A DNA stretch of 64,000 nucleotides from Candidatus Aenigmatarchaeota archaeon (GTDB lineage: Archaea > Aenigmatarchaeota > Aenigmatarchaeia > Aenigmatarchaeales > JACQIB01): contig JACQIB010000003.1 of NCBI GenBank assembly GCA_016198755.1, positions 6,767-70,766 of the forward strand, written 5' to 3'. The notes beneath the pieces are model-generated. The model was not told where the DNA came from. It saw nothing but the letters and a program-made list of their open reading frames with translations, and ran no database searches. The translations under genes were made by a program, and so were the position numbers. Numbering within the stretch: the stretch's first letter is position 1; each line of letters begins with the position of its first letter. This document shows, one piece after another, positions 18,168 through 62,532 of this stretch.

Positions 18168-18292
18168 GCCCCCCTAGTTTTTGGGGAAAGCTCAGCATGG
18201 ATGGAGCGCCTGACTTCTAACGAGCGTTAGAAGATCTGACAACAGATGAAGAAATCAGGAGGTCGCGGGTTCAAATCCCGTGGGGGGCACCA
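18168..18292 (+). tRNA. tRNA-Arg(TCT), two intervening sequences, CCA encoded
   Basis: Acceptor GCCCCCC/GGGGGGC, D arm GCTC-AGCATGGATG-GAGC, anticodon stem CCTGA/TCAGG, anticodon TCT at 18216-18218, T arm GCGGG-TTCAAAT-CCCGT. A 34-nt intron (18220-18253) sits at 37/38 with bulge-helix-bulge helix CTTC:GAAG. An extra 13 nt (18177-18189) lies between position 9 and the D stem, flanked by CCCC/GGGG pairing. Confidence 0.8.
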
Positions 18293-18295
18293 AAT

Positions 18296-18309
18296 CAGCT
18301 TTTTATTCC
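18296..18309 (+). promoter_or_regulatory. BRE/TATA-like element upstream of minD; its T-run may also terminate the tRNA-Arg transcript
   Basis: CAGCTTTTTATTCC, centred about 27 nt upstream of the ATG at 18330. The five-T run lies directly 3' of the tRNA. Confidence 0.4.
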
Positions 18310-18329
18310 TGTAGAACCTAGAAATACGC

Positions 18330-19094
18330 ATGACAACCGTTGTTTCTATAGTAAGCGGAAAGGGTGGTGTGGGTAAAACCACCACTACTTTAAACCTTGC
18401 TGCAGCTCTTGCAGAGAGGGATCATTATGTTACTGTTGTTGACGGAAATCTAACAACCCCAAACATAAGCCTTCACTTGGGAATTCCGTTGTTTCCAACA
18501 ACTTTACATGATGTTCTGCAGGGAAAAATAGACATAACAAAAGCAGTCTATATACACGAGTCTGGAGTAAGGGTTGTTCCAGCCTCCCTTTCAGTTGAAA
18601 ACCTAAAGGGAATAAAGGCTTCAGATTTGCAGAGAGCACTTGATCCTTTGGTGGAGAGAAAGGGCTGGATTCTGCTGGATGGTGCAGCTGGTTTGGGAAA
18701 GGAAGCTAGGACAGTTATGAGGGTTTCTGATACTTCCATAATTGTAACAAATCCTGAAATTCCTGCTGTTACAGATGCCCTAAAAGCAATAAAAGTTGCA
18801 AATCAGATTGGAACTCCTGTTGCAGGTGTTATAATAAACAGATGGACAGGAAAAAAACATCAAATGACTCTAAATAATATTTTTGAGATGCTTGAAAAGC
18901 CAATTCTGGGTGTTGTACCTGAGGACCAGAAAATACAAGAGTGTATTTCCCAGAAAAAGATGTTCTTCCATACACATCCGCAGAGTAGGACAGCTTACAG
19001 GTACAGGTATATTGTTTCAAATATTTTAGGCCAGCCATATCCAAGGCCAACAGGCTTAACAGGAGCCTTCAAGAGAACTTTCCTAAACTACTAG
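18330..19094 (+). CDS. minD: MinD/ParA-family ATPase
   Basis: Deviant Walker A GKGGVGKTTTTLNLAAALA, 254 aa. Confidence 0.85.
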   Translation: MTTVVSIVSGKGGVGKTTTTLNLAAALAERDHYVTVVDGNLTTPNISLHLGIPLFPTTLHDVLQGKIDITKAVYIHESGVRVVPASLSVENLKGIKASDLQRALDPLVERKGWILLDGAAGLGKEARTVMRVSDTSIIVTNPEIPAVTDALKAIKVANQIGTPVAGVIINRWTGKKHQMTLNNIFEMLEKPILGVVPEDQKIQECISQKKMFFHTHPQSRTAYRYRYIVSNILGQPYPRPTGLTGAFKRTFLNY

Positions 19095-19954
19095 GATAGC
19101 GTAATTAACAAAACTCCAATAATCATTATAATAGAACCTATTAATCTCTCCTTAATGTTTTTTTCTCCAAAAACCATATAGCCTGCTATTACACCAAATA
19201 CTATGATCAATCTTTTTATTGAAATAACATAAGCTACAAGCGTTGTGTTAATAGCCAGCATAAATGTTATGCTCATTAAAGCGGCGCTCAAGCCTATTGG
19301 CAAAAGCCATTTTAAATTGGTTCTAATACCTTTCACTCCGCCAGTTGATTTATGTAACATTATAGGCAGCATAACTGCGGCTATAGCCATATTATTTGCT
19401 ATCAGCCAAAATATTGGAGAGGAATTTTGCAGGCCAATTTTGTCCAGATTTGCTGCAATACTCCAGATAAAAGCCACTATAAGCATCAACCTTGGTCCAG
19501 ATCCCCGTAACAGTGCTTTGAAAGGCTCAAAGAAGCCCTTGTGCAGTTCTCTTATGTTCAGTACATAAGAGCCGAGAAAACCAAGCAAAACCCCAATTAT
19601 ACCCAAAGTGTTTGGCAGTTCATTGATCAATATCGGGGAAGTTATTAACATGAATGCAGGTGTAAAGGAAGCCATAGGAACTGTGACAGAAATATCAGAA
19701 GTCGAGAGTGCTTTTGAATAGAGTATATAGGATGCAGCATAGAGTACGGCTGCTATAATCAATGTAGGAAAAAATAAGGTCCCGATTTTCGGAATTTCTA
19801 TAAAGAAAAGCAACGGCAGCAGGAATGGCAAAGTAAAAAATATACCTGAAAAAGAAGCTGTATACACATCCACCTTTTCTAAACTCTTCTTGCTTGTTAT
19901 ATCCCTAAGGTTTGTAAATAAAGCAGTTAACAGAGACAGTATCAACCAAAACAT
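19091..19954 (-). CDS. EamA/DMT-family transporter
   Basis: About 10 TM helices in two 5-TM halves, 287 aa. Confidence 0.7.
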   Translation of the reverse strand: MFWLILSLLTALFTNLRDITSKKSLEKVDVYTASFSGIFFTLPFLLPLLFFIEIPKIGTLFFPTLIIAAVLYAASYILYSKALSTSDISVTVPMASFTPAFMLITSPILINELPNTLGIIGVLLGFLGSYVLNIRELHKGFFEPFKALLRGSGPRLMLIVAFIWSIAANLDKIGLQNSSPIFWLIANNMAIAAVMLPIMLHKSTGGVKGIRTNLKWLLPIGLSAALMSITFMLAINTTLVAYVISIKRLIIVFGVIAGYMVFGEKNIKERLIGSIIMIIGVLLITLS

Positions 19955-21567
19955 TATATCACATTCAGGTCCAGCTCAAAGGCGATGGCAGGCTTTTCCA
20001 GCCCGAAGTTTTGCAGAAGAGAGGGATGTATCTCGCCGAAAATACCAATAGATTTCCCTTCGGAAAAAACTTCTGCTGCACGGGAATCTATAAAACTCTT
20101 ATGTTCTACAGGTCTTATCTCAATTTTCTTTCCCATAAGCTTGCAGAAGGCTTCCAAGAAAGATTTTATTTCAGTCAGGTTTGCTGTATCATGTGTAACA
20201 ACTGCTGCAATTTTTCTCACGTTTTTATACCCAGTTTCTTCCCCTCCTTTCAAAACACAATCACCAATTTCAAATATCTTCTGCGGGTAGTCCCTGTGTT
20301 TGTTAGGCTCCAAAATCTTTAGCATACCAGGCAAAAGCCATGCACGTGCTGTTTCAAACTCAGAGGAAATAGGATTCTCAATTTTTATTCCCTCACCCTT
20401 TAGTTCCATGCGCTGGAACTGGTTTTTATTTGAAGTAAGCACAAAAGTCAGAATTTCCTGAAATCCCAGTCCAGCCATAACTTCCCTTGCTTTCCTGTTC
20501 ATTTTTGTTTTTTCAAGTATTTTTCCAACAGTTCCAATCCTTGGTATAAACGGCTGTATATTGTTATACCCATAACCTATAGCCACGTCCTCAGCAATAT
20601 CTATCCAGTGCAGTATATCCCCGCGGTATGCCGGAATTGAAACTTCTATAACACCCCCTTTCAGCGCTTTTGCTCCATATCTCATCCTTTCAAGAATAGA
20701 AACAACTTCTTTCTCTTTCAATCCTAACCCAAGGGTTTTGTCTATATCCCCCACAGAAACTTTGATTGTTTCAGTGGAAAAGTTTGGATATTGTTTCCCC
20801 CCAACAGTTACACTCTTTATTTTACCTCCCCTTTCAGCTATTGCAGAAACAACAAGATTCAGGACAAGACTGACAGCTTTCAAGTCAGTTCCAGTAACAT
20901 CCACAAAAATGTTTTTTGTCCCAGCTCCAATCTTTACTCTTTCTGACATTACAATAGGAGGCATTGAAATAACTTTTCCCGCAGAATCCATAAGTATTGG
21001 ATATTTTTTAAATCCTTCCAGCAGCTTCCCATAAGCCTTTCCCTGAGCAGTTTTCTCCAGAATATCCTTCAGTGTAATATCTTTTGTTAAACCTAAGGGA
21101 GTGAACTTAAACTCCTCTGTTTTTTCAGTATAGTTTACAGGAAACTTTATCTTATCCAGATCGTTTATACCCAAAGCAACTTTCATTCTTTTCCTTCCAA
21201 CACCCTCATGCAGTTTTTCCTGCATCTGCACAATACTTTTTATTAGCTGGTCTGTTAGTTTTACACCTTCAATAACAGCACCCAGTATATAGGGGCGTGC
21301 AGAAACTTTCCCAACCTTCAGTTCATATTTACTCTTTTCAACCTTATACTCTGCTAATCCTGTTTCCTTTCCAATAAACCCAAGAACAGCTCTTGCAACA
21401 CCCTCAGTTGAAAGTAAATCAGGTCTGTCTCCTGTTATCTCCAGTTTCCACTTCCCAACCTTTTCATCCACAGAGGCCTTTACCATCTGCAAGACAGCTT
21501 CTAATTCCCCTTCAGGTATCTTGCAAAGTCCAGCCAAATCTTTCTGGTCAACTTCTATTACAGGCAT
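19954..21567 (-). CDS. pheT: Phenylalanyl-tRNA synthetase beta subunit
   Basis: Archaeal B3/4 and B5 domain pattern, 537 aa, immediately downstream of pheS. Confidence 0.9.
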   Translation of the reverse strand: MPVIEVDQKDLAGLCKIPEGELEAVLQMVKASVDEKVGKWKLEITGDRPDLLSTEGVARAVLGFIGKETGLAEYKVEKSKYELKVGKVSARPYILGAVIEGVKLTDQLIKSIVQMQEKLHEGVGRKRMKVALGINDLDKIKFPVNYTEKTEEFKFTPLGLTKDITLKDILEKTAQGKAYGKLLEGFKKYPILMDSAGKVISMPPIVMSERVKIGAGTKNIFVDVTGTDLKAVSLVLNLVVSAIAERGGKIKSVTVGGKQYPNFSTETIKVSVGDIDKTLGLGLKEKEVVSILERMRYGAKALKGGVIEVSIPAYRGDILHWIDIAEDVAIGYGYNNIQPFIPRIGTVGKILEKTKMNRKAREVMAGLGFQEILTFVLTSNKNQFQRMELKGEGIKIENPISSEFETARAWLLPGMLKILEPNKHRDYPQKIFEIGDCVLKGGEETGYKNVRKIAAVVTHDTANLTEIKSFLEAFCKLMGKKIEIRPVEHKSFIDSRAAEVFSEGKSIGIFGEIHPSLLQNFGLEKPAIAFELDLNVI

Positions 21568-22812
21568 TTAAACCACCTTTTGCTGGCGAAGCCAGCCTAA
21601 ATCTTCTGCAAATAGCATTCTAATATCCTCCAATCCCATTTTTAACATAACAAGCCTTGTCAGTCCAATTCCCCATGCTATGACAGGGTTCTTAATTTCC
21701 AAAGCAGCCAAGAGTTCAGGCCTGAACATTCCAGCTCCTGCAGCTTCTACCCACTTTCCCAATTTCGGAAACCATATAGCCATATCCACAGAAGGCTCTG
21801 TAAAGGGATAATAGCTTGGTATAAATTTTACCTTTTCTGAACCAGTGAAAACAACAGCAAATTCTTTCAATATCCCAAGCAATTCTCTTAAGTTAAGCTT
21901 CTCTCCCATTACAATACCATCGCACTGGTCAAACTCAATTAGATGGGTTTTATCCAGCACATCTGGCCTGAAAACCCTGTCTATACAAAACATTTTCTGC
22001 GGCGGGGTTTTATTCTGGTTCAAAAACCTGCCAGAAACAGCTGTTGTGTGCGAGCGCAGCATTAGTTTGGTTGCTCTTTCAGCTGACCATGAATACTGCC
22101 AGCCCTTGCTTCCAGTAATCCAGCCGTTCTCATGAACTTTTTTCACTCTTTCAACCAATCCCTTATCCAACAATTTTCCCCTTCCAGAAACAACAAAGCT
22201 ATCATGTATCTCACGTGCAGGATGGTTCTGGGCTTGGAAAAGAGTATCAAAGTTCCAGAACTCCTCTTCCACAAAAGGTCCAGCAGCTTCCTGGAACCCC
22301 ATCCCAACCAGTATATCCTTTGCCTCTTCTATAGCTTCAATATAGGGCTGCATTTTGCCTGCAAAAACAGCTGGTGCAGGAGTTTTCACATCATATTTCC
22401 TGAACTTTGCCCCTTTCCATGCCCCGGAAATTATCATTTCAGGCGTTAATTGTGCAATCTCTCCCTCTATTGTAACAGCTTTCCTTTTCTCAGTTACAAG
22501 TCCCCTGTCTTCCAGCTGTTTAAGCAAGTTTCCAGAGATATCCCTGCCAACCGAAATCAGTCCCAATGCCTCCTCCAACTCTGTCCTGTTTCCAGCTGCT
22601 CCTCTCCCCTCCTTTGTAAGCTCTAACATGCCTGAAGAAACCTTAATCCAGCCCAGCTTTTTCGCCCAGTTAAAACCAATAGCAGAATCTTCAACTCCCT
22701 TCAGCTCAACAATTTTTACATTTCCATTAAGCAGAAGCTGCAAAAGCCTTCGCTCCGGCAACCCCACCTTTACATATTTTTTCCCTTCTTCTGTTAGCTC
22801 CATACAAATCAC
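21568..22812 (-). CDS. pheS: Phenylalanyl-tRNA synthetase alpha subunit
   Basis: Class II motifs (LRSHTTAVS, FRPD, GAGMFRPE). The likely start is the ATG at 22803, 25 nt downstream of the centre of a TATA-like box. Confidence 0.9.
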   Translation of the reverse strand: MICMELTEEGKKYVKVGLPERRLLQLLLNGNVKIVELKGVEDSAIGFNWAKKLGWIKVSSGMLELTKEGRGAAGNRTELEEALGLISVGRDISGNLLKQLEDRGLVTEKRKAVTIEGEIAQLTPEMIISGAWKGAKFRKYDVKTPAPAVFAGKMQPYIEAIEEAKDILVGMGFQEAAGPFVEEEFWNFDTLFQAQNHPAREIHDSFVVSGRGKLLDKGLVERVKKVHENGWITGSKGWQYSWSAERATKLMLRSHTTAVSGRFLNQNKTPPQKMFCIDRVFRPDVLDKTHLIEFDQCDGIVMGEKLNLRELLGILKEFAVVFTGSEKVKFIPSYYPFTEPSVDMAIWFPKLGKWVEAAGAGMFRPELLAALEIKNPVIAWGIGLTRLVMLKMGLEDIRMLFAEDLGWLRQQKVV

Positions 22813-22820
22813 TGGTTTTT

Positions 22821-22855
22821 ACCAAAATATAAGCATTTTAATTCCTTTAAAACCA
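22821..22855. promoter_or_regulatory. Divergent promoter region (pheS leftward, glycosyltransferase rightward)
   Basis: The minus strand reads AAATGCTTATATTTTGG about 25 nt upstream of the pheS ATG at 22803. The plus strand reads TTCCTTTAAAACC about 26 nt upstream of the ATG at 22875. Confidence 0.4.
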
Positions 22856-22874
22856 AGACTGCAGCAGGATCTGC

Positions 22875-23987
22875 ATGGTCATGGAGTATATAGCAGCACT
22901 GGTTCTTCTAGAGGCCATTATATCTTTCAAGCTCCTCTGGAACTTTCCAAAACTCCCTCCAGCAGGTAAAATACAATACTATCCCATGGTTTCTATAATA
23001 GTTCCTGTCAGGAACGAGATAGACAACATAAAACTGTGCATGGAATCTATACTGAATCTGGACTATCCAAACAAAGAGATAATAGCTGTGGATGGAAGCT
23101 CAACAGACGGTACATACGAATACCTCAAAACCCTGAAAGGCATAAAACTTATACATGAAGAGAGCCTCCCTTCGGGCTGGGTTGGAAAGAATTATGCCTG
23201 TTTTCTGGGTTACAAAGCCTCAAAGGGAGAGTTTCTCCTTTTTACTGATGGTGATACAACCCACCATAAAGACCTGCTAAAAAACAGCATAAGCTATTCT
23301 ATGGAACAGAAAGTTGGTTTATTGACACTTGGACCAAAACTTTTTTACAGAGTCTTCTCTGAAAAAATTATACTTCCCTTTATAGTTGGTGTAATAACTA
23401 CACTTTCAGGCGGCAAAAAAGTAAATGATGACAATTCAGGCAGTTGGATGGCTGACGGTCAGTATATGCTCTTTGACAGGAACGCTTATGAGAAAATTGG
23501 TGGACATGAAAAGGTGAAAGGCAACATGATAGAGGATGTTTCCCTTGCAGGATTGATTAAAACCTCTGGCTTAAGGCTAAGGGTTTTAACAGCTCAGAAC
23601 TATTTTGAGACAAGAATGCACCAGAACTTTTCAGAGCTATTAGAAAGCTGGACTAAAAACTTCTATGCTTTCACAAACCACAGGCCTGCCAAAGCAGCTT
23701 TAATTCTCCTTTATGTTTCAGTATTCTACCTGTTGCCAGCAGCAGTCTTTATCCTCTCCTTCGGTTCTTCCATATGGGCAGGAGTTGCCTATATAATAAG
23801 TCTCGGGAAGATGGCAGCAATCTATAAGGGACTAAGATCCAAGGCAAGATACTCCCCCCTTTATCCAATAGCAGCTTTAGTTTACTTTTTTGCAGGCCTT
23901 ACTTCAACCCTGCGCGGTATCTTTGGCTTAGGTGCTCATTGGAAGGGGAGGGTTTATTCCAGCGAAAAAGTACAGTTCAGTCCCTGA
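22875..23987 (+). CDS. Family 2 glycosyltransferase with C-terminal TM helices
   Basis: VSIIVPVRNE, DGSSTDGT, FTDGDT (DxD-like), C-terminal hydrophobic segments. Confidence 0.8.
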   Translation: MVMEYIAALVLLEAIISFKLLWNFPKLPPAGKIQYYPMVSIIVPVRNEIDNIKLCMESILNLDYPNKEIIAVDGSSTDGTYEYLKTLKGIKLIHEESLPSGWVGKNYACFLGYKASKGEFLLFTDGDTTHHKDLLKNSISYSMEQKVGLLTLGPKLFYRVFSEKIILPFIVGVITTLSGGKKVNDDNSGSWMADGQYMLFDRNAYEKIGGHEKVKGNMIEDVSLAGLIKTSGLRLRVLTAQNYFETRMHQNFSELLESWTKNFYAFTNHRPAKAALILLYVSVFYLLPAAVFILSFGSSIWAGVAYIISLGKMAAIYKGLRSKARYSPLYPIAALVYFFAGLTSTLRGIFGLGAHWKGRVYSSEKVQFSP

Positions 23988-25077
23988 GCATAAACTTATC
24001 CAGAACCTTTTTAGCTTGTTCCCTCTTCCTTTGATGTTCTTTTAAGAAAGTGTTTAATTTGTCTATCAAAATCTGCTTCAATTCCCCAGTAAGCATCTTC
24101 CCAGATTTATAGTCATCGTATATTTTCTTCAGCTTTTTATCATCCTCCTCAAAGAAAGTCAGATACTGATAAGCAATATCTATATCAGGGTTTCCTCCAA
24201 GTTTTCTATGATCTTCAACAGATATTTTGCCTCCGGAAAATGCATGTTTCATGATTTTTTCTTTTATTTCTACAGGAGTATCTGTTGTGTAAATGGCACT
24301 AGTTGGGTCAGAAGCAGACATTTTTCCACCTTCTTTCAGTCCAGGAAGGAATTTGCACAAAAGTGCAGCAGGCTTTGGAAGTCCACTTTTTTCTGCAATA
24401 TCCCTTGCAAGCCGTATAAAAACATCCTGATCAATTGCCACCGGAACCAAAACTGGCAGCTTCATTTTTTCTGATGGATAAAGTATGTGAGCTGCCTGCA
24501 TTGCAGGATAGAATGTTATGCCTATATTGTGTTCATCAGTAAACCCAAAAGCAGACTTAACAGTGCTGTGCGTAAGCTTTTTCGCACATTTCATAGCAAG
24601 ATTATAGACATCCTGATTCATGTTTTTCATATCCACTACTATTTTGGTTTTCTCAGGGTCAAATCCTATAGCAATAACATCCAGCAAATTCTCATCAACA
24701 AATTTTTCAACAGAATCAAAATCCAAGTTTTCTTTGTAAAGGAATTTTTCATCATCTGAAAACGGTATAAAAACAAAGCAGCCAAATATATCCTGCAGCT
24801 CCTTTACAAATTTCATTAGCACAAGATGCCCCAAGTGCATCTTTTCAGAAACACCCCTGCCAGAAACAATAGCAAACTTTTTCTCCCTAAGTATTTTGTC
24901 AAAATCTCTATGTGCGTAAATATAGCCACGCCTCATTAAAAGCGGCATATTTTTGAAGTGCTTCCGTATATTTTCATCTATCAAACTTACTCCGAAATCT
25001 TCCACAAGCTTTTCATAGTCAACCTTTCCCTCAACTTCATACGGTGTTACAACAAACTCTTTTGCCATATCTATCAC
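23977..25077 (-). CDS. trpS: Tryptophanyl-tRNA synthetase (archaeal/eukaryotic type)
   Basis: SGRGVSEKMHLGHLV (HIGH region) and KMSASDP. Confidence 0.85.
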   Translation of the reverse strand: MIDMAKEFVVTPYEVEGKVDYEKLVEDFGVSLIDENIRKHFKNMPLLMRRGYIYAHRDFDKILREKKFAIVSGRGVSEKMHLGHLVLMKFVKELQDIFGCFVFIPFSDDEKFLYKENLDFDSVEKFVDENLLDVIAIGFDPEKTKIVVDMKNMNQDVYNLAMKCAKKLTHSTVKSAFGFTDEHNIGITFYPAMQAAHILYPSEKMKLPVLVPVAIDQDVFIRLARDIAEKSGLPKPAALLCKFLPGLKEGGKMSASDPTSAIYTTDTPVEIKEKIMKHAFSGGKISVEDHRKLGGNPDIDIAYQYLTFFEEDDKKLKKIYDDYKSGKMLTGELKQILIDKLNTFLKEHQRKREQAKKVLDKFMLRD

Positions 25078-25102
25078 TTTGTTCAGCTGGTTTTTAAGCC
25101 TT

Positions 25103-25957: not shown

Positions 25958-26101
25958 AGGAAATTCACAATGCGGTCCCTTTACACCCCTGTATACCAGA
26001 GCCCCAGAATTGCCGCTAGAAAACCGTTGGGTTAAGTTTATTCCACGTTCCTTTGCAAATCTATCTACATAAATATCTACTTGCCCAAAGACCTTCCCCT
26101 C

Positions 26102-26453: not shown

Positions 26454-26459
26454 GCTCGC

Positions 26460-27950
26460 GTGCAAAACAAACCCATGGTTGCAGAGGAAGTAGAGAGTAT
26501 AGCAAAGCGCAGAGGGTTCTTTTGGCCAGCTGCAGAAATTTACAAGCCAATAGCAGGTTTCTGGAACTGGGGGCCGTTGGGAACAAGGCTTAAGGGTAAC
26601 TTTCTTGCTGAGTGGAAAAATATTTTTGTTAGGGGGGAGAATGCATACGAAATAGAGACAACAGATATTTTACCGGAAATAGTTTGGCAGGCCTCAGGCC
26701 ACTCTGAAGGGTTTAATGACAAACAAACAATGTGCAAGAAGTGCAAGAGCAGGTTTAGGGCAGATCATTTTATTGAGGAGTTCTTAAAGGGAAAAGAAAA
26801 GCTTGAAGGAAAGAGCTGTGAGGAGCTGACAGCTATAATAGAGAAAGAAAAGCTGCGCTGTCCCAAATGCAAAGGTACTCTGTCGGAGGTTTTTGTTTTC
26901 AACCTTATGTTTTCTGTTGGTGTGGGACCGACTGGAGAGCAGAAAGCCTATCTGAAGCCAGAAACCACCCAAAGTTCTGTTTTAGACTTTCCAAATGTTT
27001 ACAGGACAATGAGGGGTAAGCTTCCACTGAAGATAGCACAAGTAGGTAGGAGCTTTAGGAATGAGATTTCTCCACGCAACATAATGCTCCGAATGAGGGA
27101 GTTTGATATGGCTGAGCTTCAGGTTTTCTTTAATTCAGAGCAAAAGGAGTTTGCAGGATTTGAGAACATTAGTAAGGAAAACATAAGGATTCTCCCGGCA
27201 GAGCTTAGAAAGGGAAAGGAAGGAAAAGAAGTTGAAGTTAGTATAGAAGGGGCTTTGAAAAAGGGCTGGGTGCCAAATGAGATTACAGCTTACTATTTGG
27301 CAAAGGTCTTCACGTTCTACTTGTCTCTGGGCTTTGAAAGGAAAAACCTGCGCTTTAAAGAGCTTCTGCCAGAGGAAAGAGCCCACTATGCAAAAGTGCA
27401 CTGGGACTTTGAAGTTTATACAGAGGATTTTGGATGGGTTGAGTGTGTGAATAATGCTTGGCGCACAGATTATGACCTTAGCAGGCATCAGCAGTTCTCA
27501 AAGCAAAAGCTGACAGTTTTCGAGGACAACAAACATGTTTTGCCTAACATGTATGAGCCAAGCTTTGGAATTAACAGGACACTTTTCCTGTTGTTGGTTT
27601 CTACCTATAGGAAAGATGAAAAGAGGGTTTGGTTTGCCTTTCCACCTGCGTTAGCTCCATATTCTGTTGCTGTTTTCCCGCTTGTAAAGAAAGATGGAGT
27701 TGATAAGAAAGCTCAGGAGGTTTTTGACCTGCTTAGTAAAGAGGGACTGGAAGTTCTTTATGATGAATCAGACTCTATAGGTAGAAGGTATGCAAGGGTA
27801 GATGAGATAGGCATACCATTTGCTGTAACAGTAGACTATCAGACACTTGAGGACAAAGCTGTGACAGTGAGGTTCAGGGACAGCACGAAGCAGGAGAGGG
27901 TTCCAATAGAAGGCTTGGGCAAGTTTATTAAGTCTGCCGCAAAATTCTGA
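26460..27950 (+). CDS. glyS: Glycyl-tRNA synthetase (alpha2 archaeal/eukaryotic type)
   Basis: RRGFFWP..EIY N-terminus, FRNEISPR motif 2, C-terminal anticodon-binding domain. The probable true start is the ATG at 26475 (MVAEEVE). Confidence 0.9.
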   Translation: MQNKPMVAEEVESIAKRRGFFWPAAEIYKPIAGFWNWGPLGTRLKGNFLAEWKNIFVRGENAYEIETTDILPEIVWQASGHSEGFNDKQTMCKKCKSRFRADHFIEEFLKGKEKLEGKSCEELTAIIEKEKLRCPKCKGTLSEVFVFNLMFSVGVGPTGEQKAYLKPETTQSSVLDFPNVYRTMRGKLPLKIAQVGRSFRNEISPRNIMLRMREFDMAELQVFFNSEQKEFAGFENISKENIRILPAELRKGKEGKEVEVSIEGALKKGWVPNEITAYYLAKVFTFYLSLGFERKNLRFKELLPEERAHYAKVHWDFEVYTEDFGWVECVNNAWRTDYDLSRHQQFSKQKLTVFEDNKHVLPNMYEPSFGINRTLFLLLVSTYRKDEKRVWFAFPPALAPYSVAVFPLVKKDGVDKKAQEVFDLLSKEGLEVLYDESDSIGRRYARVDEIGIPFAVTVDYQTLEDKAVTVRFRDSTKQERVPIEGLGKFIKSAAKF

Positions 27951-30981: not shown

Positions 30982-31518
30982 TCATGGCTTGAAGAACTTT
31001 ACCGCATAATATCCAACAGAATCTTTGTAAACAACAGCCCAGAGCATGTTTGCGCGGATATTATGGGCTAATCTGACAGCTCTGCTGAGTTCAGGGAAAG
31101 AGAAAACATAGTTTTCCGGAACAGCAAACACAATCCATTTTGTGTGTTCCCCAGCACTTTTAGGCCCCCTTTTCAGTGGTTTCACACCTTTGTTGTAAAC
31201 CCTGAAGTCACATCCAAACTTAAACCCTGTTCTGGTTGGTAGTTCTTTGTTTCTCAAATCTTTGTAAACAGCATAGCGGAAGCTGAAGCGCGGATCTTTT
31301 TGGTTGCAATACTGGAACATTTCCTCCTTTCCAACCTCTTTTCCTGTCTTATCCACCATAGTTACCTTTCCAATATCCAGTAAATATGCAGCTTCTATTA
31401 ACGCAAGTTCAAGCCTGTCTTCCCTGGGCTTTCCCAGATAAAGCTCTTCAAACAGCTCATTTCCCTTTTCCCTGTCCCATACAACAGCTCTATTTTCTGC
31501 TAAAACAACTTCTATCAT
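30982..31518 (-). CDS. endA: tRNA-splicing endonuclease subunit (EndA paralog 2; Tyr and His present)
   Basis: YKDLRNKELPTRTGFKFGCDFRVYNKG, GEHTKWIVF, RLAHNIRANMLWAVV, aligned by eye to M. jannaschii EndA. Confidence 0.85.
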   Translation of the reverse strand: MIEVVLAENRAVVWDREKGNELFEELYLGKPREDRLELALIEAAYLLDIGKVTMVDKTGKEVGKEEMFQYCNQKDPRFSFRYAVYKDLRNKELPTRTGFKFGCDFRVYNKGVKPLKRGPKSAGEHTKWIVFAVPENYVFSFPELSRAVRLAHNIRANMLWAVVYKDSVGYYAVKFFKP

Positions 31519-31519: not shown

Positions 31520-32041
31520 TTATCCCACCTTCGGAGATTCTATTATGTAGTAAGTACAGTCAGAGTCATTATCCACAACAGCCCAGAGTGCAACAGATTT
31601 TATATTTTGTGCAAGTTTTATTGCTTTCCCAAGCTGCTCTAAAGCACATGGATAATCTTCTGCTGAAGTAAAAACAATCCATTTCACTGTTTCAGCTTTC
31701 CCAGGTTTTGCACCACGTTCATAAACCCTGAAATCACATCCCTTAAATCCTGTTCTCACTGCTAATCCACGTTCCCTCAGGTCTTTGTATACTGAATAAC
31801 GGGCCATGAAATGCTCGTCCCTTTCAGAACAATAATTCAGAATTTCTTTCAAAGAAAGTTTTTGCTCTCCTATAACTACCTCTAGCTTTCCCCTCTCCAA
31901 AAGAGCTGCTGCTTCTATCTGGTCCAGTTCAAATCCACTTCCAAGCGGATTACCATACCAGCCTGTTTCGTATAGCTCCTTTGCTTCGGGGCCTTCAACA
32001 ACAACTTTGTCATTTTCCAGCTTTCCCGTCAGCATATTCAA
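31520..32041 (-). CDS. endA: tRNA-splicing endonuclease subunit (EndA paralog 1; catalytic His position substituted)
   Basis: YKDLRERGLAVRTGFKGCDFRVYERG, KAETVKWIVF, KLAQNIKSVALWAVV. Separated from the downstream paralog by 1 nt. Confidence 0.8.
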   Translation of the reverse strand: MNMLTGKLENDKVVVEGPEAKELYETGWYGNPLGSGFELDQIEAAALLERGKLEVVIGEQKLSLKEILNYCSERDEHFMARYSVYKDLRERGLAVRTGFKGCDFRVYERGAKPGKAETVKWIVFTSAEDYPCALEQLGKAIKLAQNIKSVALWAVVDNDSDCTYYIIESPKVG

Positions 32042-32961: not shown

Positions 32962-33090
32962 TGGTGGGGCAGGCGTGATTTGAACACGCGACATTCCGCA
33001 CTGCACACAATAGGTATGCAGTTCCACGGTCTTCAGCCGTTTAAGCCTCTTTAATTAAGAGTGTGCTCTCCCGAGCTGAGCTACTGCCCC
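32962..33090 (-). tRNA. tRNA-Phe(GAA), two non-canonical introns, CCA encoded
   Basis: Acceptor GGGGCAG/CTGCCCC, D arm GCTC-AGCTCGGGA-GAGC, T arm GCGTG-TTCAAAT-CACGC. Anticodon loop CTGAAGA (GAA at 33034-33032) in stem CACGG/CCGTG, which forms only after removing a 22-nt intron (33041-33062, position 27/28, BHB helix GAGC:GCTT). A 30-nt intron (32994-33023, position 44/45, BHB helix CCGT:GCGG) restores a 5-nt variable loop. Lengths sum exactly: 77+22+30=129. Confidence 0.75.
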
Positions 33091-40992: not shown

Positions 40993-41137
40993 TGGAGCCC
41001 CAGGCAGGATTTTCCACCCTTTTGGGGTTTGCAAAGACCTTTTAGGGAAAAGGGATTTGCTTTGAACCTGCGGCCTGCTGTTTACGAAATTCGGCAGCTT
41101 ATGCTTCAGCCACTCTACCGGTCTGAGCCACTGGGGC
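40993..41137 (-). tRNA. tRNA-Thr(CGT), two introns (30/31 and T-loop 59/60), CCA encoded, discriminator U
   Basis: Acceptor GCCCCAG/CTGGGGC, D arm GCTC-AGACCGGTA-GAGT. Removing a 17-nt intron (41090-41106; BHB helix TGGC:GCCG, bulges TGA/AAT) gives stem GCTGT/ACAGC and loop TTCGTAA (CGT at 41086-41084). T arm GCAGG-TTCAAA[51 nt, 41010-41060]T-CCTGC. 77+17+51=145. Confidence 0.75.
41010..41060 (-). repeat. T-loop intron family A, copy in tRNA-Thr
   Basis: GCAAATCCCTTTTCCCTAAAAGGTCTTTGCAAACCCCAAAAGGGTGGAAAA. 48 of 51 nt are identical to the copy in tRNA-Val(TAC). Confidence 0.85.
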
Positions 41138-47023: not shown

Positions 47024-47230
47024 TGGTGGGCGGGAAGAGATTTGTTCAGCTTAGTCCTACCTGAGGGGGTAGGGCTGTAGGGGGAAACTTCCCCCTGAGC
47101 TTTGAACTCTCGGCCACCAGTTAACCTAAACTTTTCGGAACGCAGCCACGCTTTCACGCGAGTGCGCGATTATAAGACTGGCGCTCCAACCGGGCTTTGC
47201 CTTGGCTTTTGCCAAATGAGCTACCCGCCC
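47024..47230 (-). tRNA. tRNA-Ile(TAT), three introns (D-loop 14/15, anticodon 37/38, T-loop 58/59), CCA encoded
   Basis: Acceptor GGGCGGG/CCCGCCC. D arm GCTCA[21 nt, 47196-47216]GCCCGGTTG-GAGC. Anticodon stem CCAGT/ACTGG, loop CTTATA[48 nt, 47123-47170]A, with TAT at 47174-47172 and BHB helix CTTA:TAGG. T arm GAGAG-TTCAA[60 nt, 47042-47101]AT-CTCTT with BHB helix GTTC:GAAC. 78+21+48+60=207. Confidence 0.75.
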
Positions 47231-49022: not shown

Positions 49023-49182
49023 GGGCCGGTGGTCTAGTCCGGTATGACATCACCCTGACAGCAGTCAAACCATTATGTTTGTCTTGCGGAACGGTGGGAG
49101 TCGCAGGTTCAAAGGAGGAGAAACTACGTATCTCCCTCCACCCTCTCCCTTTGAGGGGCTGAAAATCCTGCCCGGCCCACCA
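49023..49182 (+). tRNA. tRNA-Val(GAC), two introns (37/38 and T-loop 59/60), CCA encoded
   Basis: Acceptor GGGCCGG/CCGGCCC. Anticodon stem TCACC/GGTGG, loop CTGACA[31 nt, 49061-49091]C, with GAC at 49057-49059. T arm GCAGG-TTCAAA[52 nt, 49114-49165]T-CCTGC with BHB helix TTCA:TGAA and bulges AAG/AAT. 77+31+52=160. Confidence 0.8.
49114..49165 (+). repeat. T-loop intron family B, copy in tRNA-Val(GAC)
   Basis: GGAGGAGAAACTACGTATCTCCCTCCACCCTCTCCCTTTGAGGGGCTGAAAA. 52 of 52 nt are identical to the copy in tRNA-Gly. Confidence 0.9.
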
Positions 49183-54388: not shown

Positions 54389-54399
54389 CTATAAAACCC

Positions 54400-56988: not shown

Positions 56989-57047
56989 CTTAAATCATCT
57001 ACAAAACTCTTAGGAGTGCAAGAACAAAAACCTTTGCTTTAGGGGAT

Positions 57048-57767: not shown

Positions 57768-57804
57768 AGGCAGGCTTTTATTAGTAAACTTTAAATATAC
57801 CTCT

Positions 57805-58809
57805 ATGAAGTCAGCATTTGACCTGAAAAACAACCTAGGAAAGATAACTCCACAGAGTATGGACGATCTCTATGTTTTGTTAGATATACTGATTCCTGGT
57901 TGTTTGGTTAAAGCCAAAACAGTAAGGGTTGCTGAGGTTAGAAGGGGGGAGGAAAAGGAGAGGGTTAGAAAGGAAATGGTTCTGCTGAAAATTAAAGTAG
58001 AGAAAATAGAGCTTGCACAGGATCTAAGATTAGGGGGAAAAATTGTTGAATCACCCCCAGAAGTAGAGCACAGCTACCATACAATAGAGGTTGAACCCTT
58101 TACCTATATAGAAGTTGAAAAAGAATGGAAAAAATGGGAAATTGACAAGATAAAGGCTGCAGCAAAGAAAACAGAGCCTGTTTTAGCTTTAATTCTGGAT
58201 GAGAGTGAGGCTGATTTGTTTTTAGTAAAGGACCGCACAGAGCATGTTTTGCACCTGAAAGGCCCAGGAACTGGAAAAAGCCTTGGGTTAAAGGGTGGTA
58301 AACAGGAATACTATAACGAGATTATTGGGATTTTGAAAAAGAGACCTGAAAGACATATCGTTCTGGCTGGTCCAGGGTTTGCAAAGGATGAGCTAAAGAA
58401 CATTCTAAGGGAAAAGGAAAAGGAGCTATTTTCTAAATTGACAGTGGAAAGGGTTTATGAGACAGAGGAAGCCGGGCTTTCTGAACTGTTGGATAAAGGG
58501 ATTTTACAGAGGCTTTTGAAAACCTCAAGAATAGAGGAAGAAACAGAAGCTGTAAAGCTGTTAATGGAACAGATAGCAAGGAAAGGGAAAGCTGTTTATG
58601 GTATTGCTGAGACTGAAAGGGCTTTGGAAGCTGGGGCTGTGGAAAAGCTGTTAATAGCTGACAAGAATGTTAGGAAATTTGAAAAACTGCTGGAAAAGGC
58701 TGAAAAAACAGGTGCTGAAGTAATGATTATTTCCTCTGCCCATCCAGCAGGGGAGAGGTTTGCTGGACTGGGTGGAATAGGGGGATTGTTAAGGTATAGG
58801 ATAGAGTGA
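57805..58809 (+). CDS. pelA: Pelota (Dom34) ribosome rescue factor
   Basis: MKSAFDLKNNLGKITPQSMDDLYVLLDIL... followed by eRF1-like domains 2 and 3. The ORF-track extension to 57475 is antisense to the neighbouring gene. A TATA-like TTTTATTAGTAAAC/TTTAAATATA lies just upstream. Confidence 0.9.
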   Translation: MKSAFDLKNNLGKITPQSMDDLYVLLDILIPGCLVKAKTVRVAEVRRGEEKERVRKEMVLLKIKVEKIELAQDLRLGGKIVESPPEVEHSYHTIEVEPFTYIEVEKEWKKWEIDKIKAAAKKTEPVLALILDESEADLFLVKDRTEHVLHLKGPGTGKSLGLKGGKQEYYNEIIGILKKRPERHIVLAGPGFAKDELKNILREKEKELFSKLTVERVYETEEAGLSELLDKGILQRLLKTSRIEEETEAVKLLMEQIARKGKAVYGIAETERALEAGAVEKLLIADKNVRKFEKLLEKAEKTGAEVMIISSAHPAGERFAGLGGIGGLLRYRIE

Positions 58810-58842
58810 GGTTTATATACTACTAAAAGGTAGTTATATATA

Positions 58843-60063
58843 ATGGTTCCGGATGATTTTAACATGCGCACAGCTATGGCTGCGGCAGAAAGGCTTAAAC
58901 AGACCTATAGAGGGAGGCTTGTTGTTAATCCAAGTACTGTTAGAAATGCTGTTGAAGGAGTCGGATCTACTAAAAGTTTATATGCAGCTCCCGAAATCAT
59001 TGAGGGAGATATAATACCTGCTGTTTATGGTGCTGTTATAGGAGACCCGGCAAATTCCGGTTTGATAGCAGAAATTTCACAATCTGTTGAGCGTGCACAC
59101 GATATAGCACAAAAAAGATCCAGAATAGCTGCAAAGGATTTTGGAGTTAAATCAAGGAGACCTGCAACACAAATAATGTATGAAAGTCCCGGAGGTAATG
59201 GAATGGCATACGATTTTTCCCTTGATAGGATTTTTGTTCCTGTTCCAATGGCTTTGGCTGAAGAGCCAAAAATAGTAGAGAGTTTCGTCGAGGAGGATAC
59301 CCACGCATATACAAAGGACAGGGCTCCCAGTCTTTTCGAGTCTCTTGGATTAAATCAAAGAACAAACCAACCCAAGGACATTGCTGTACTTTTTCCACTT
59401 TTTGTTATAGAGGGTATAGGACAACTGTATGCTCACGCCGATGATTATCCTGATAACAAAAGAGCTGTAAGGAAAGTGGGTGAGGGGAATGTTGATTTTA
59501 TTAGGCAGGCACAGTCAAGTCCGTATGTTGGCGGTTTTTTGGTTATGGATACAATGAAAAGGGCACATGGAAGGAGGAAAGCTGTTAATAGAGCTATAGA
59601 TATTGATTCACCGGAAGAGTTCTTGAGAGAGTATGGTCTGGCATGCAAAAGATTGAAGGAGCCTGCCATAAATCTTTGGGATGGGCTTGGCGAAACATTA
59701 TATCAGGAAACAGCGAGGAGAAAGGCAGAGCAGATTAGGCAGCTTTTGGAGGTTGGAGAAAAAAGTCGGATTGAGAGGTTTTTGGCAGTGAATGACTTGC
59801 TTGGTAAGATAAGACAAGGATTGAATAATCCAGGAGAATTGCCGCAAAGCGAGAGAAGGGAAGCTCTGGCAACTTTGAATGGCATTGGAAGTGTAGAAGG
59901 AGTATTATATCATGTTTTTGATGATGCTGTATTGCATAATGCAACTTTCTCACAAAAGTTGTGGAGCAGGGCATGTGGTTTTCTGTTAGATAAGTATGAA
60001 GGATTGAAAGAACAGACAAATCCATTACCCACCCCAAGGCAGCCTGTTCTAGTGCTGCAATAA
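58843..60063 (+). CDS. Hypothetical protein (406 aa)
   Basis: Long ORF with no recognised motif. By eye its codons look more GC-rich than flanking genes. Confidence 0.45.
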   Translation: MVPDDFNMRTAMAAAERLKQTYRGRLVVNPSTVRNAVEGVGSTKSLYAAPEIIEGDIIPAVYGAVIGDPANSGLIAEISQSVERAHDIAQKRSRIAAKDFGVKSRRPATQIMYESPGGNGMAYDFSLDRIFVPVPMALAEEPKIVESFVEEDTHAYTKDRAPSLFESLGLNQRTNQPKDIAVLFPLFVIEGIGQLYAHADDYPDNKRAVRKVGEGNVDFIRQAQSSPYVGGFLVMDTMKRAHGRRKAVNRAIDIDSPEEFLREYGLACKRLKEPAINLWDGLGETLYQETARRKAEQIRQLLEVGEKSRIERFLAVNDLLGKIRQGLNNPGELPQSERREALATLNGIGSVEGVLYHVFDDAVLHNATFSQKLWSRACGFLLDKYEGLKEQTNPLPTPRQPVLVLQ

Positions 60064-60531
60064 CCTTCTATTTTCTTCCAATACAACGACTATATCTCTC
60101 TCTTTCTCCCCAGAAACCTCAAATTCTTTAACAATATCAAATCCGGTTGGCTTTAGCTTTTCCAGCCTAGAGCTGAAAATAGAAATCACAGCCTTTCCTT
60201 CAGGTTTCAGAACCCTTTTCAGTTCTTTCCAGAACTCTAGTGAAAGCAAATGTATTGTATCCATGCAGAAAATCCAGTCTGCTCCCCCGCTTTTAAAGGG
60301 AAGGCTGTTCCCATCTCCAAGAATTCTGTTGCCTTCAAATTCCTTCAGATGTTTCAGAGAGCTGTCCAAAGCAATACAGTCTATATACCTCTCCAGAAAA
60401 CCAGGTCCAGAGCCTATATCCAGAACAGTTCCATGCACATCTCCCAGCTTAGAGAGCAGCTGCTCTATTTTTTTGCATTGTTCAGCTTCCATTGCTTTGC
60501 TGTATATTGCTTCTGTTAACATTCTTATCAC
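60049..60531 (-). CDS. Class I SAM-dependent methyltransferase (small)
   Basis: Motif I VLDIGSGPGFLE; post-I acidic residue; 160 aa. Confidence 0.7.
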   Translation of the reverse strand: MIRMLTEAIYSKAMEAEQCKKIEQLLSKLGDVHGTVLDIGSGPGFLERYIDCIALDSSLKHLKEFEGNRILGDGNSLPFKSGGADWIFCMDTIHLLSLEFWKELKRVLKPEGKAVISIFSSRLEKLKPTGFDIVKEFEVSGEKERDIVVVLEENRRLLQH

Positions 60532-60536
60532 GCAGT

Positions 60537-61001
60537 TTACTTAATTCCAAGCTGTTTATCTAAAGGCAGATTTGAAAAATATGTTCTGACATCGGATTTT
60601 ATGTCCACTAATTCAATTATTTCAATATCTTTTCTAACTATCAGGCTAAACCCTTTTTGAGACAAATATTTTGATTTAAATTCAGAGTAATTCGAGACAG
60701 TGAAATCAGCATCTCCCAATTCAGGTCTTGATTTATCTGGTTTTCGTATTTTCAGCAATTCAAGTTTGCCTGCTACTGTATTTATAGGCTCGATATGGAA
60801 AATTGGACCTGTAGGAGTCTCCTTAGAGATATTTCCAATTTTCTCCAAAGTTGATATAAGATTGTTGTATTGTTTATTGCTCTGACAAAAAATACATGCG
60901 TAATTAACCTGCGCTTTTTTCTCGTTCGTATATTTATTTTTCAGGTTGTTTGCTTTTTCCACAATTTCCTGAACAAAACTTTTTAATTCCTCTGTTTTCA
61001 T
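60537..61001 (-). CDS. Hypothetical protein (154 aa)
   Basis: ORF in a notably AT-rich stretch adjacent to tRNA-Ala. No motif recognised. Confidence 0.45.
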   Translation of the reverse strand: MKTEELKSFVQEIVEKANNLKNKYTNEKKAQVNYACIFCQSNKQYNNLISTLEKIGNISKETPTGPIFHIEPINTVAGKLELLKIRKPDKSRPELGDADFTVSNYSEFKSKYLSQKGFSLIVRKDIEIIELVDIKSDVRTYFSNLPLDKQLGIK

Positions 61002-61017
61002 TTGCTTACACCGAGAT

Positions 61018-61105
61018 TGGTGGACTCGGGGGGATTTGAACCCCCGATCTCATGCATGCCATGTGCAATTATTATGCACGCGTCATTCCGCTAGACCACG
61101 AGCCC
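61018..61105 (-). tRNA. tRNA-Ala(GGC), one 13-nt intron in the anticodon loop (33/34), CCA encoded
   Basis: Acceptor GGGCTCG/CGAGTCC with the G3:U70 Ala identity pair. Anticodon stem CGTGC/GCATG. Loop AT[13 nt, 61061-61073]GGCAT with BHB helix GTGC:GCAC, GGC at 61060-61058. T arm GGGGG-TTCAAAT-CCCCC. 75+13=88. Confidence 0.7.
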
Positions 61106-61727
61106 TATGGTGATTTTTAAGGAATCCTATAGCCTTTTTAGCTTTGTAAGGATTTAAAAACCCTATAGTCGAAGAGAATCTTGCTAGCTGTCCAAAACCA
61201 TATAATCTAAGATAGTATAACGGTTTTCCATTATTCATAGATTTTGTTACTCTCCCTTTCATACCAAGACTATTTACTACTGCTTCTAAAGAATGTATAA
61301 GATTGGTGCTCCTAGAATCCAAATTTATTGTTGGATAATTTCTATTTTTTCTAGAATGTACACTACCATCAGTATCAAAGACTCCTCTTGTAAATGCTAT
61401 TTCTAATTTTATCTTACCTATTATCTCATCAGGCATAGATACAGTGAATGTCTTTGGACTTTTGAGGCGCATCATCTCTAGAATTTTACAAAGTTCCTTT
61501 GAGCCAAAATACGCTCGGAAAGCTTTTATACCACTGGATTCTGGGATCAAACTAGGCGTCTTGTTAAATAATCTTTCGATTAATGGTACATAAACATCTC
61601 GTAAAAACTTGTAATCAGAAGTTTTGACTTCTATTGTTCTATCACCCACATATCCATCACCGGCAATTATGCCTAAAAAATATGCGAAATCTTCAGTAAT
61701 TTTCATAATAATAACTACTCGTTTCAA
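61083..61727 (-). CDS. Free-standing LAGLIDADG homing endonuclease (double-motif)
   Basis: Two LAGLIDADG motifs: YFLGIIAGDGYV and FTRGVFDTDGSV. The likely start is at 61706. The last 23 nt, including the TGA stop, lie inside the 5' part of tRNA-Ala. Confidence 0.85.
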   Translation of the reverse strand: MKRVVIIMKITEDFAYFLGIIAGDGYVGDRTIEVKTSDYKFLRDVYVPLIERLFNKTPSLIPESSGIKAFRAYFGSKELCKILEMMRLKSPKTFTVSMPDEIIGKIKLEIAFTRGVFDTDGSVHSRKNRNYPTINLDSRSTNLIHSLEAVVNSLGMKGRVTKSMNNGKPLYYLRLYGFGQLARFSSTIGFLNPYKAKKAIGFLKNHHRARGLAE

Positions 61728-61796
61728 TATTAATTTTTAACTCAATCTTTAATATAATGCCAATAAAACGCCCTAAGCATAGATAATAATTAAAAC

Positions 61797-61966
61797 TGGT
61801 GGGCCGGGCAGGATTTTCAGCCCTTTTGGGGTTTGCAAAGACCTTTTCGGGAAAAGGGATTTGCTTTGAACCTGCGACTCCCACCTTTCCGTCCGCTTCG
61901 TGTGCTGAACCCTCAACACTGTTGCGGATGTAAGGGTGATGTCATACCGGACTAGACCACCGGCCC
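61797..61966 (-). tRNA. tRNA-Val(TAC), two introns (37/38 and T-loop 59/60), CCA encoded
   Basis: Exons are identical to tRNA-Val(GAC) except positions 34 and 38. Loop CTTACA[42 nt, 61887-61928]A, with TAC at 61932-61930. T arm GCAGG-TTCAAA[51 nt, 61814-61864]T-CCTGC. 77+42+51=170. Confidence 0.8.
61814..61864 (-). repeat. T-loop intron family A, copy in tRNA-Val(TAC)
   Basis: GCAAATCCCTTTTCCCGAAAAGGTCTTTGCAAACCCCAAAAGGGCTGAAAA. Confidence 0.85.
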
Positions 61967-61968
61967 GT

Positions 61969-62379
61969 TTAGAGCTTTCCCTTCCAAGCATTTAAAATCA
62001 CATTCTTGTGCTTTCTGAGAAAAGCCTTCTCAGCAGGGTACGAGTTAATTTTAACAGCTTTCTCAAAAACAAACCATTTTGGCTTGTCAGAGTCATGTGG
62101 TTTAAGGATTTTGTTCTGGGTTCTGAAAAGATAGATATGTATAATTTTCATTTTAGTTTTAATTGAATTCATTCTTCTAACAACACCCAAAAACTTAACA
62201 AGCTCCAAACCCCTTAATCCTGTTTCTTCCCTAATTTCTCTCCTAGCCCCAGCAAGGAAAGTCTCTCCCTTCCTTTTTCCACCCTGCGGCAGCTGCCAAT
62301 CCCTTCCATCTGGACAAAAACAGAGAACAATTTTTCCCTCTCTGGAAACAACCCCACCGCAGGTTATCCTGTTTTTCAT
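61969..62379 (-). CDS. NUDIX hydrolase
   Basis: Nudix box GGKRKGETFLAGARREIREETGL. The real start is MKNRITCGGVV at 62379. The ORF-track extension to 62508 is a read-through of tRNA-Gly. Confidence 0.8.
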   Translation of the reverse strand: MKNRITCGGVVSREGKIVLCFCPDGRDWQLPQGGKRKGETFLAGARREIREETGLRGLELVKFLGVVRRMNSIKTKMKIIHIYLFRTQNKILKPHDSDKPKWFVFEKAVKINSYPAEKAFLRKHKNVILNAWKGKL

Positions 62380-62388
62380 AAAACCAAC

Positions 62389-62532
62389 TGGTGCGCCCGA
62401 CGGGATTTTCAGCCCCTCAAAGGGAGAGGGTGGAGGGAGATACGTAGTTTCTCCTCCTTTGAACCCGTGTCGTAAGCTTTTTCTGCGGAAATCGCATGGG
62501 AAGCTCAAATCCTACCACTAGACTACGGACGC
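62389..62532 (-). tRNA. tRNA-Gly(CCC), two introns (37/38 and T-loop 59/60), CCA encoded
   Basis: Acceptor GCGTCCG/CGGGCGC. Anticodon stem TGAGC/GCTTA, loop TTCCCA[18 nt, 62479-62496]A, with CCC at 62500-62498. T arm ACGGG-TTCAAA[52 nt, 62406-62457]T-CCCGT. 74+18+52=144. Confidence 0.8.
62406..62457 (-). repeat. T-loop intron family B, copy in tRNA-Gly(CCC)
   Basis: Its reverse complement is identical to 49114-49165. Confidence 0.9.

Follow-up and report, generated by a model that had tools for sequence, protein, structure and literature searches.

The eight tRNA genes described here lie on a 64,000-nucleotide (nt) stretch of contig JACQIB010000003.1 (positions 6,767 to 70,766, forward strand), from a Candidatus Aenigmatarchaeota archaeon. 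The whole stretch is referred to as the window, and the tRNA genes extend over 18168-62532, the outer limits of the first and last gene. Each gene is interrupted by one to three segments with the features of archaeal bulge-helix-bulge (BHB) introns. Very probably all eight are functional tRNA genes whose introns are removed by a splicing endonuclease encoded in the same window. The loci were located with a scan that required a 7-bp acceptor stem, NCCA after it and a T-arm, interrupted or not. CCA is encoded in all eight, and an A/T-rich TATA-like element lies 5' of every gene, mostly ~30-40 nt upstream. No uninterrupted tRNA gene was detected in the window by ARAGORN, Rfam or the acceptor/T-arm scan. 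A relaxed scan for acceptor stem and T-arm without the CCA requirement gave the same eight loci, its other matches being weak and within coding regions.

Introns are named here by the two tRNA positions that they separate. tRNA-Arg(TCT) (18168..18292, + strand, 125 nt including CCA) has a 13-nt intron at 8/9 (18176-18188) and a 34-nt intron at 37/38 (18220-18253). tRNA-Phe(GAA) (32962..33090, - strand, 129 nt) is interrupted at 27/28 by 22 nt (33041-33062) and at 44/45 by 30 nt (32994-33023). The 145-nt tRNA-Thr(CGT) gene (40993..41137, - strand) has a 17-nt intron at 30/31 (41090-41106) and a 51-nt intron at 59/60 (41010-41060). The longest gene, tRNA-Ile(TAT) (47024..47230, - strand, 207 nt), contains three introns, of 21 nt at 14/15 (47196-47216), 48 nt at 37/38 (47123-47170) and 60 nt at 58/59 (47042-47101), and a BHB-constrained dynamic-programming alignment of this gene gives the same three. 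tRNA-Val(GAC) (49023..49182, + strand, 160 nt) carries 31 nt at 37/38 (49061-49091) and 52 nt at 59/60 (49114-49165). tRNA-Ala(GGC) (61018..61105, - strand, 88 nt), which has the G3:U70 identity pair, is the only gene with a single intron, of 13 nt at 33/34 (61061-61073). tRNA-Val(TAC) (61797..61966, - strand, 170 nt) is interrupted at 37/38 by 42 nt (61887-61928) and at 59/60 by 51 nt (61814-61864), and tRNA-Gly(CCC) (62389..62532, - strand, 144 nt) by 18 nt at 37/38 (62479-62496) and by 52 nt at 59/60 (62406-62457).

Excision of the 16 segments takes out 555 nt of intron and leaves 613 nt of exon. These totals, like the number of genes and the interruption of every one of them, agree exactly with a preliminary description of the window made from the letters alone. 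The spliced products are 74-78 nt long including CCA, and ARAGORN types all eight of them, as Arg(tct), Phe(gaa), Thr(cgt), Ile(tat), Val(gac), Ala(ggc), Val(tac) and Gly(ccc), which are the anticodon types assigned earlier. RNAalifold folds the eight spliced sequences into a standard cloverleaf consensus in which 17 of 20 pairs covary, so the expected restoration of the cloverleaf is borne out by both programs.

The unspliced genes are poorly served by the standard tools that were run, as had been anticipated. With default settings ARAGORN finds one gene in the window, the unspliced Ala(GGC) at 61018-61105, and mistypes it as Tyr(ata). With introns allowed it finds three and mistypes each (Arg as Phe, Phe as Ile, Ala as Tyr). 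The Rfam tRNA model detects four of the eight at the gathering score, one of them partially, and five with relaxed filters, with big unaligned insertions in each. tRNA-Ile(TAT) is overlooked by both ARAGORN and Rfam, and Thr-CGT and Val-GAC were recovered by the acceptor/T-arm scan only.

The junctions were assessed with a simple rule for an intron between positions x and x+1. The rule has exon nucleotides x-5 to x-2 paired to intron nucleotides -6 to -3 and one splice site in each bulge, the 5' site at (x-1, x | i1) and the 3' site at (i-2, i-1 | x+1). The central 4-bp helix is complete in 11 of the 16 introns, has three of four pairs in another four (Thr 59/60, Ile 14/15, Val-GAC 37/38 and Gly 37/38) and two of four in one, the Val-TAC 37/38 intron, which is the weakest BHB of the set. 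The null consisted of all other placements of same-length segments within the same genes, for which the chance of a complete helix is 0.024 and that of at least three pairs is 0.16. The binomial tails are 6e-15 for 11 complete helices and 2e-11 for at least three pairs in 15 of 16; the former becomes 1e-8 when the best of four equivalent registers is allowed. AA stands at the 3' end of 14 of the 16 introns, where it takes up positions one and two of the 3' bulge, in keeping with the adenine-capturing pocket that has been described for the splicing endonuclease EndA (PMC3488258).

The shape of the motif varies among the junctions. The full hBHBh' motif is present at Thr 30/31, at Gly 37/38 with one mismatch, and at Ile 58/59 with the T stem shifted by one register. 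Both Phe introns and Ile 14/15 have an HBh' motif, without the outer helix, and the two 13-nt introns (Arg 8/9 and Ala 33/34) form a bulge-helix-loop. The four 59/60 introns and most of those at 37/38 have an hBH motif, in which a natural stem serves as the outer helix and the intron interior is branched. The strict 3-4-3 geometry holds for only about half of the junctions, and the others are relaxed (HBh', hBH or bulge-helix-loop). The preliminary description had drawn most junctions as BHB; the central pairing stands far beyond chance, the strict geometry carries through in part, and Val-TAC 37/38 is weak. Unconstrained minimum free energy (MFE) folds of the precursors show the helix and bulges for the four 59/60 introns (Thr, both Val and Gly), for both Phe introns, and for Ile 14/15 and Ala 33/34. 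At Arg 8/9 three nucleotides of the 5' leader lie within the outer helix, which suggests that this intron is spliced before RNase P cleavage.

Five introns are at the canonical 37/38 site, as had been noted, and the 11 others are at non-canonical positions, four at 59/60 and one each at 58/59, 8/9, 14/15, 27/28, 30/31, 33/34 and 44/45. These positions are those given earlier, except that the first Arg intron fits 8/9 and not 9/10, with the same mature sequence either way. Intron lengths range from 13 to 60 nt. This is far too short for self-splicing group I or group II introns, and Rfam gives no intron family. A C/D-box small RNA is encoded inside the intron of euryarchaeal tRNA-Trp. Genes of this kind were considered here and rejected, as none of the 16 contains a C box; the CTGA seen close to the 3' end of T-loop introns is accounted for by its pairing with TTCA(G) in the T-loop.

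The boundaries of seven of the 16 introns are settled by the available syntenic orthologous tRNA genes, which lack the intron and have exactly the predicted junction. The seven comprise both Phe introns, both Val-GAC introns, Arg 8/9, and Ile 14/15 and 58/59. The predicted spliced tRNA-Phe aligns without gaps across 27/28 and 44/45 to the genes at the related loci L085 and L086, which have other introns, one near position 9 in L085 and one in the anticodon loop in L086. In L084, whose EndA is 95% identical, both Phe introns are at the same sites, and the exons are 100% identical while the introns have diverged. The second intron contains at least one compensatory change there, an inner-helix A:T pair replaced by G:C. 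The Arg gene of L086 lacks the 8/9 intron and has a 37/38 intron recognisably homologous to that of the window. L005 has a Val(GAC) gene without either window intron, with one D-loop intron instead. The Ile genes of L005, L007, L011 and L076 lack the 14/15 and 58/59 introns.

The tRNA-Ile(UAU) gene lies beside the thermosome gene and is interrupted in every relative examined, at differing places. In L005 (7287-7479, - strand) and L014 (4335-4632, + strand), from related Aenigmatarchaeota metagenome-assembled genomes (MAGs), this gene resolves into five BHB introns each. Those of L005 are at 8/9, in the D-loop, and at 29/30, 37/38 and 45/46. The L014 gene is interrupted twice in the D-arm, once in the anticodon stem (5' strand), once in the anticodon loop and, by a 90-nt intron, at 59/60. 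With the introns removed, each of the two genes gives a valid Ile(tat) cloverleaf. The UAU anticodon itself is conserved at the Aenigmatarchaeota loci L005, L006, L007, L011, L014 and L076. AUA is read in most archaea by an agmatidine-modified CAU tRNA, and to our knowledge a UAU anticodon for this codon occurs in only a few archaeal lineages, such as N. equitans and Korarchaeum.

In more distant Aenigmatarchaeota (L208-L210) the tRNA genes are mostly uninterrupted, so the intron expansion is lineage-specific. The DPANN-like host suggested by the preliminary description is indeed an Aenigmarchaeota MAG. A LAGLIDADG protein of the window (see below) is 100% identical to NCBI HY362_02270 from a 'Candidatus Aenigmarchaeota archaeon' MAG, and the nearest relatives of the thermosome gene are in Aenigmatarchaeota MAGs, with 78-64% identity. 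The same sequences are present in independent assemblies (Logan, and ENA for a related strain).

Two EndA paralogues are encoded in tandem on the - strand ~0.9 kb from tRNA-Phe. The alpha-like, catalytic subunit (30982..31518, 178 amino acids) lies directly downstream of the beta-like, structural subunit (31520..32041, 173 amino acids), and each has both EndA domains (Pfam tRNA_int_endo_N and tRNA_int_endo). The best PDB match for alpha is 3iey_A, the NEQ205 catalytic subunit of the Nanoarchaeum equitans (alpha-beta)2 enzyme (E=9e-29). Catalytic Tyr and His are kept in alpha, and just before the His is a seven-residue K/R-rich insertion (KGVKPLKRGPK) that aligns with the NEQ-specific loop of NEQ205. 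The basic residues of that loop are expected to be important for broad substrate specificity (PMC3488258), and the loop is probably the one named L3 in PMC5829648. A large N-terminal insertion of the crenarchaeal CSL type was not seen in an alignment to M. jannaschii. In beta the catalytic His is replaced by Thr and the Lys by Ser, and it therefore looks like a beta subunit. The beta-alpha pair is conserved in L084-L087, along with an M54 peptidase gene upstream and a gene for a CBS protein downstream.

The position of the canonical catalytic Lys (K156 of M. jannaschii, in AHSVRKK) is occupied by Ala in alpha (AHNIRAN), and the same is true of all 120 nearest homologues. Tyr-His-Arg-Lys is the pattern in 131 of 150 diverse EndA representatives. 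In this set the Lys is replaced by Ala or Ser only where a loop of 15-16 residues of the RGVKxxKxGPK type lies between the catalytic Tyr and His, and three further representatives have Thr at that position and a short, nine-residue loop. It is possible that a lysine of the loop has taken over the role of the catalytic lysine. As the canonical residue is missing, the activity of alpha is assumed. Judging by the paired genes and by which catalytic residues each subunit keeps, the enzyme is most likely an (alpha-beta)2 heterotetramer of the Nanoarchaeum kind, and a presumably broad specificity would fit the relaxed motifs that it has to cut.

The most probable course of splicing can be outlined from these features. 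Each gene would be transcribed from its own A/T-rich promoter-like element into a precursor with one to three BHB introns. Intron nucleotides -6 to -3, counted from the 3' end, would then pair with a four-nucleotide exon stretch 2-5 nt upstream of the 5' splice site, placing both sites in short bulges or loops, usually as ..|A on the 5' side and AA|N on the 3' side. At the 11 non-canonical introns a strand of the acceptor, D, anticodon or T stem would be engaged in this pairing, and the precursor would therefore not yet have the cloverleaf form. We infer that the pre-tRNAs are cut at both sites by the window-encoded endonuclease, most likely the (alpha-beta)2 form with its Nanoarchaeum-type basic loop, and that the exons are joined by a ligase, presumably of the RtcB type, after which the cloverleaf would form. 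The introns themselves probably turn over fast, and some probably spread between tRNA genes.

The 59/60 introns fall into two families, each common to tRNA genes of different specificity. The 52-nt family B introns of Val(GAC) and Gly(CCC) are identical at all 52 positions. The 51-nt family A introns of Thr(CGT) and Val(TAC) are identical at 43 of 44 positions, followed by a diverged tail. On a metagenome contig (L105), a further tRNA gene, which visual inspection assigns to Arg(GCG), also has a family B intron in its T-loop. A pattern scan of metagenomes for T-loop introns, whose listed matches are mostly due to chance and do not amount to a census of the family, includes at least six tRNA genes with a 59/60 intron among the matches listed, the family B case being one of them. 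Within the window, blastn with all 16 introns found no copies outside tRNA genes. The sharing of these families by unrelated tRNAs suggests intron transposition between the genes. Near-identical introns in unrelated tRNAs of Thermoproteales have been read in the same way (Fujishima 2010, as cited in PMC4090602).

The two valine genes (49023-49182, + strand, and 61797-61966, - strand) have exons that are identical except at position 34, while at neither site are their introns related in sequence. This points either to replacement of the introns or to very recent homogenisation of the exons. Independent short-read Logan assemblies of the same organism (L211:1-130, L212 and L213; SRR121134xx) all break inside the family A intron of Val(TAC). 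Repeated introns and exons fragment assemblies in this way, and such tRNA genes may consequently be hidden in MAGs.

Several observations weigh against the view that these are functional genes spliced by the window's own enzyme. The Val-TAC 37/38 intron has only two of the four central pairs, several of the anticodon-loop and T-loop introns have no simple inner helix, alpha has Ala in place of the canonical catalytic Lys, and no RtcB-type ligase is present among the ~40 window open reading frames (ORFs) scanned with Pfam. The poor junction in Val-TAC, and the fact that most of the genes are missed or mistyped by standard tools, would also be expected of decaying pseudogenes or of genes carrying junk that is never removed, with functional copies elsewhere in the genome. 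This explanation is very improbable given that all eight genes give perfect cloverleaves once the segments are removed, that pairing at the junctions exceeds chance by a wide margin and that the window has genes for the endonuclease. In a diverged strain the Phe exons are fully conserved as the introns change, with at least one paired change that keeps the helix, and the multi-intron organisation of tRNA-Ile(UAU) is kept at a syntenic site across the phylum. The insertions could also be artefacts of metagenome assembly, from chimeric joins or collapsed repeats, and repeats do trouble assemblers, as the Logan contigs that break inside the repeated Val-TAC T-loop intron illustrate. Yet independent Logan assemblies contain the intron-bearing tRNA-Ala again, along with the 3' part of Val-TAC, and in the ENA assembly of a related strain tRNA-Phe is interrupted by both introns at unchanged sites. 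That sixteen artefacts should each restore a cloverleaf and form a BHB is not to be expected, and an origin in assembly is hardly credible.

A further explanation accepts the introns as real and holds that a minority of junctions are placed or processed otherwise, for example Val-TAC and Val-GAC 37/38, the choice of 8/9 or 9/10 in Arg, or an obligatory order of removal, with the next BHB able to form only after an earlier intron has left. We regard this as possible but rather unlikely. It draws on the incomplete central helices of Val-TAC 37/38 and of four other introns, on the MFE fold of the Arg precursor, which prefers a different pairing between anticodon loop and intron, and on the T-loop, where up to four registers give an identical mature sequence. 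Sequential BHB formation has also been described by the authors of tRNAscan-SE (PMC8450103). This explanation would refine the account of functional, spliced tRNA genes rather than replace it, and since orthologues fix the exon sequence, the alternatives must yield the same, or nearly the same, mature sequence.

Introns of this kind are already known. Non-canonical and multiple BHB introns that co-evolve with an EndA of broad specificity have been reported in Thermoproteales, N. equitans and ARMAN (PMC4090602, PMC4033280, PMC3239211), and no account of tRNA introns in Aenigmarchaeota was found in the literature searched. The window has 2.0 introns per gene (16 in eight), with more than one in seven of the eight genes, which are a sample of the genome and not its whole tRNA set. 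Published values are 0.21 introns per gene across archaea, an average of 0.84 in Thermoproteales, and a record of 1.54 in Pyrobaculum calidifontis (71 introns in 46 genes), with up to three introns in one archaeal tRNA gene (PMC8450103; a maximum of three is also given in PMC4033280). In this eight-gene sample the density is therefore at or above the published record, and the earlier comparison with Thermoproteales is well founded.

The closest parallel in intron content is with Thermoproteales (Pyrobaculum, Thermofilum, Caldivirga), as far as Sugahara 2007/2008 and Fujishima 2010 are summarised in PMC4090602, PMC4033280 and PMC8450103. These archaea share with the window BHB and relaxed-BHB introns at many non-canonical positions, several introns per gene, near-identical introns in unrelated tRNA genes, and a heteromeric endonuclease. 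They are hyperthermophilic crenarchaea, whereas the window comes from a DPANN Aenigmarchaeota lineage with ~40% GC. Its EndA has a Nanoarchaeum-type loop with no large N-terminal insertion seen at the CSL position, and its relatives reach five introns per gene, in contrast to the published maximum of three.

The window has in common with N. equitans (NEQ205/NEQ261, PDB 3iey), also a DPANN archaeon, that alpha and beta are encoded separately and that a K/R-rich loop stands immediately ahead of the catalytic His (PMC3488258). NEQ205 has the canonical Lys (AHSTRKK), unlike the window alpha and its 120 nearest homologues, and N. equitans has split or intron-containing tRNAs, whereas no split tRNA genes were seen in the window. 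ARMAN-1 and ARMAN-2 (Micrarchaeota) are likewise ultrasmall DPANN archaea with non-canonical and multiple tRNA introns (PMC3239211, PMC3488258). Their endonuclease has broad specificity, as the window enzyme may have too, and their epsilon-2 EndA is a single fused three-unit polypeptide with an ASL loop, in contrast to the two genes of ~175 amino acids found here. A trend in DPANN for the L3/NEQ-type loop to accompany disrupted tRNA genes was already noted in 2018 (PMC5829648). The genome set of that study is without Aenigmarchaeota, and alpha4-type enzymes are mentioned there for the other DPANN lineages, whereas the window has an alpha/beta pair.

Between tRNA-Val(TAC) and tRNA-Ala(GGC) is a free-standing LAGLIDADG homing-endonuclease-like gene (61083-61706, - strand, 207 amino acids), the last 23 nt of which overlap the 5' end of tRNA-Ala(GGC). 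It was considered as an intron-encoded ORF and rejected, as it sits between two complete tRNA genes and no tRNA fragment was seen upstream. Its homologues in L208-L210 (54-58% identity) are also directly upstream of tRNA-Ala(GGC), with an overlap of 14-23 nt, and this linkage is conserved though the wider gene neighbourhood differs in these relatives. The window is unusually rich in translation genes (5616-8330, 15396-18101, 19954-22812, 23977-25077 and 26460-27950), the order of which is partly conserved in relatives. Six encode aminoacyl-tRNA synthetases, namely AlaRS, a LeuRS-like class I enzyme, PheRS alpha and beta, a Trp/Tyr-type enzyme and a class II enzyme of the G/H/P/S/T group. Ribosomal protein L10 is also encoded, as is a protein with eRF1-type domains whose identical product is tagged Pelota_N. 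Other RNA-processing genes were looked for among the ~40 ORFs scanned, and none was seen.

Co-evolution of multi-intron tRNA genes and EndA is best known from Thermoproteales and a few DPANN genomes. The window adds a mesophile-like Aenigmarchaeota lineage (~40% GC) in which every sampled tRNA gene is interrupted. Because the annotation tools tested miss or mistype most of these genes, estimates of completeness and codon usage for such MAGs could be wrong. A more speculative extension, which we put forward tentatively and think somewhat doubtful, is that the lineage has the most intron-ridden tRNA system known, with ~2 introns per gene genome-wide and up to five in its sisters, an (alpha-beta)2 EndA that lacks the catalytic Lys and uses a loop Lys, and T-loop introns that spread by way of the nearly universal GGTTCAAATCC. 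Very recent transfer between unrelated tRNAs is visible in the 52-nt intron that is 100% identical in two genes. The same short region brings together intron gain and loss between close relatives and a cognate EndA with an unusual active site. In combination, these features make the lineage well suited to studying how BHB introns move.

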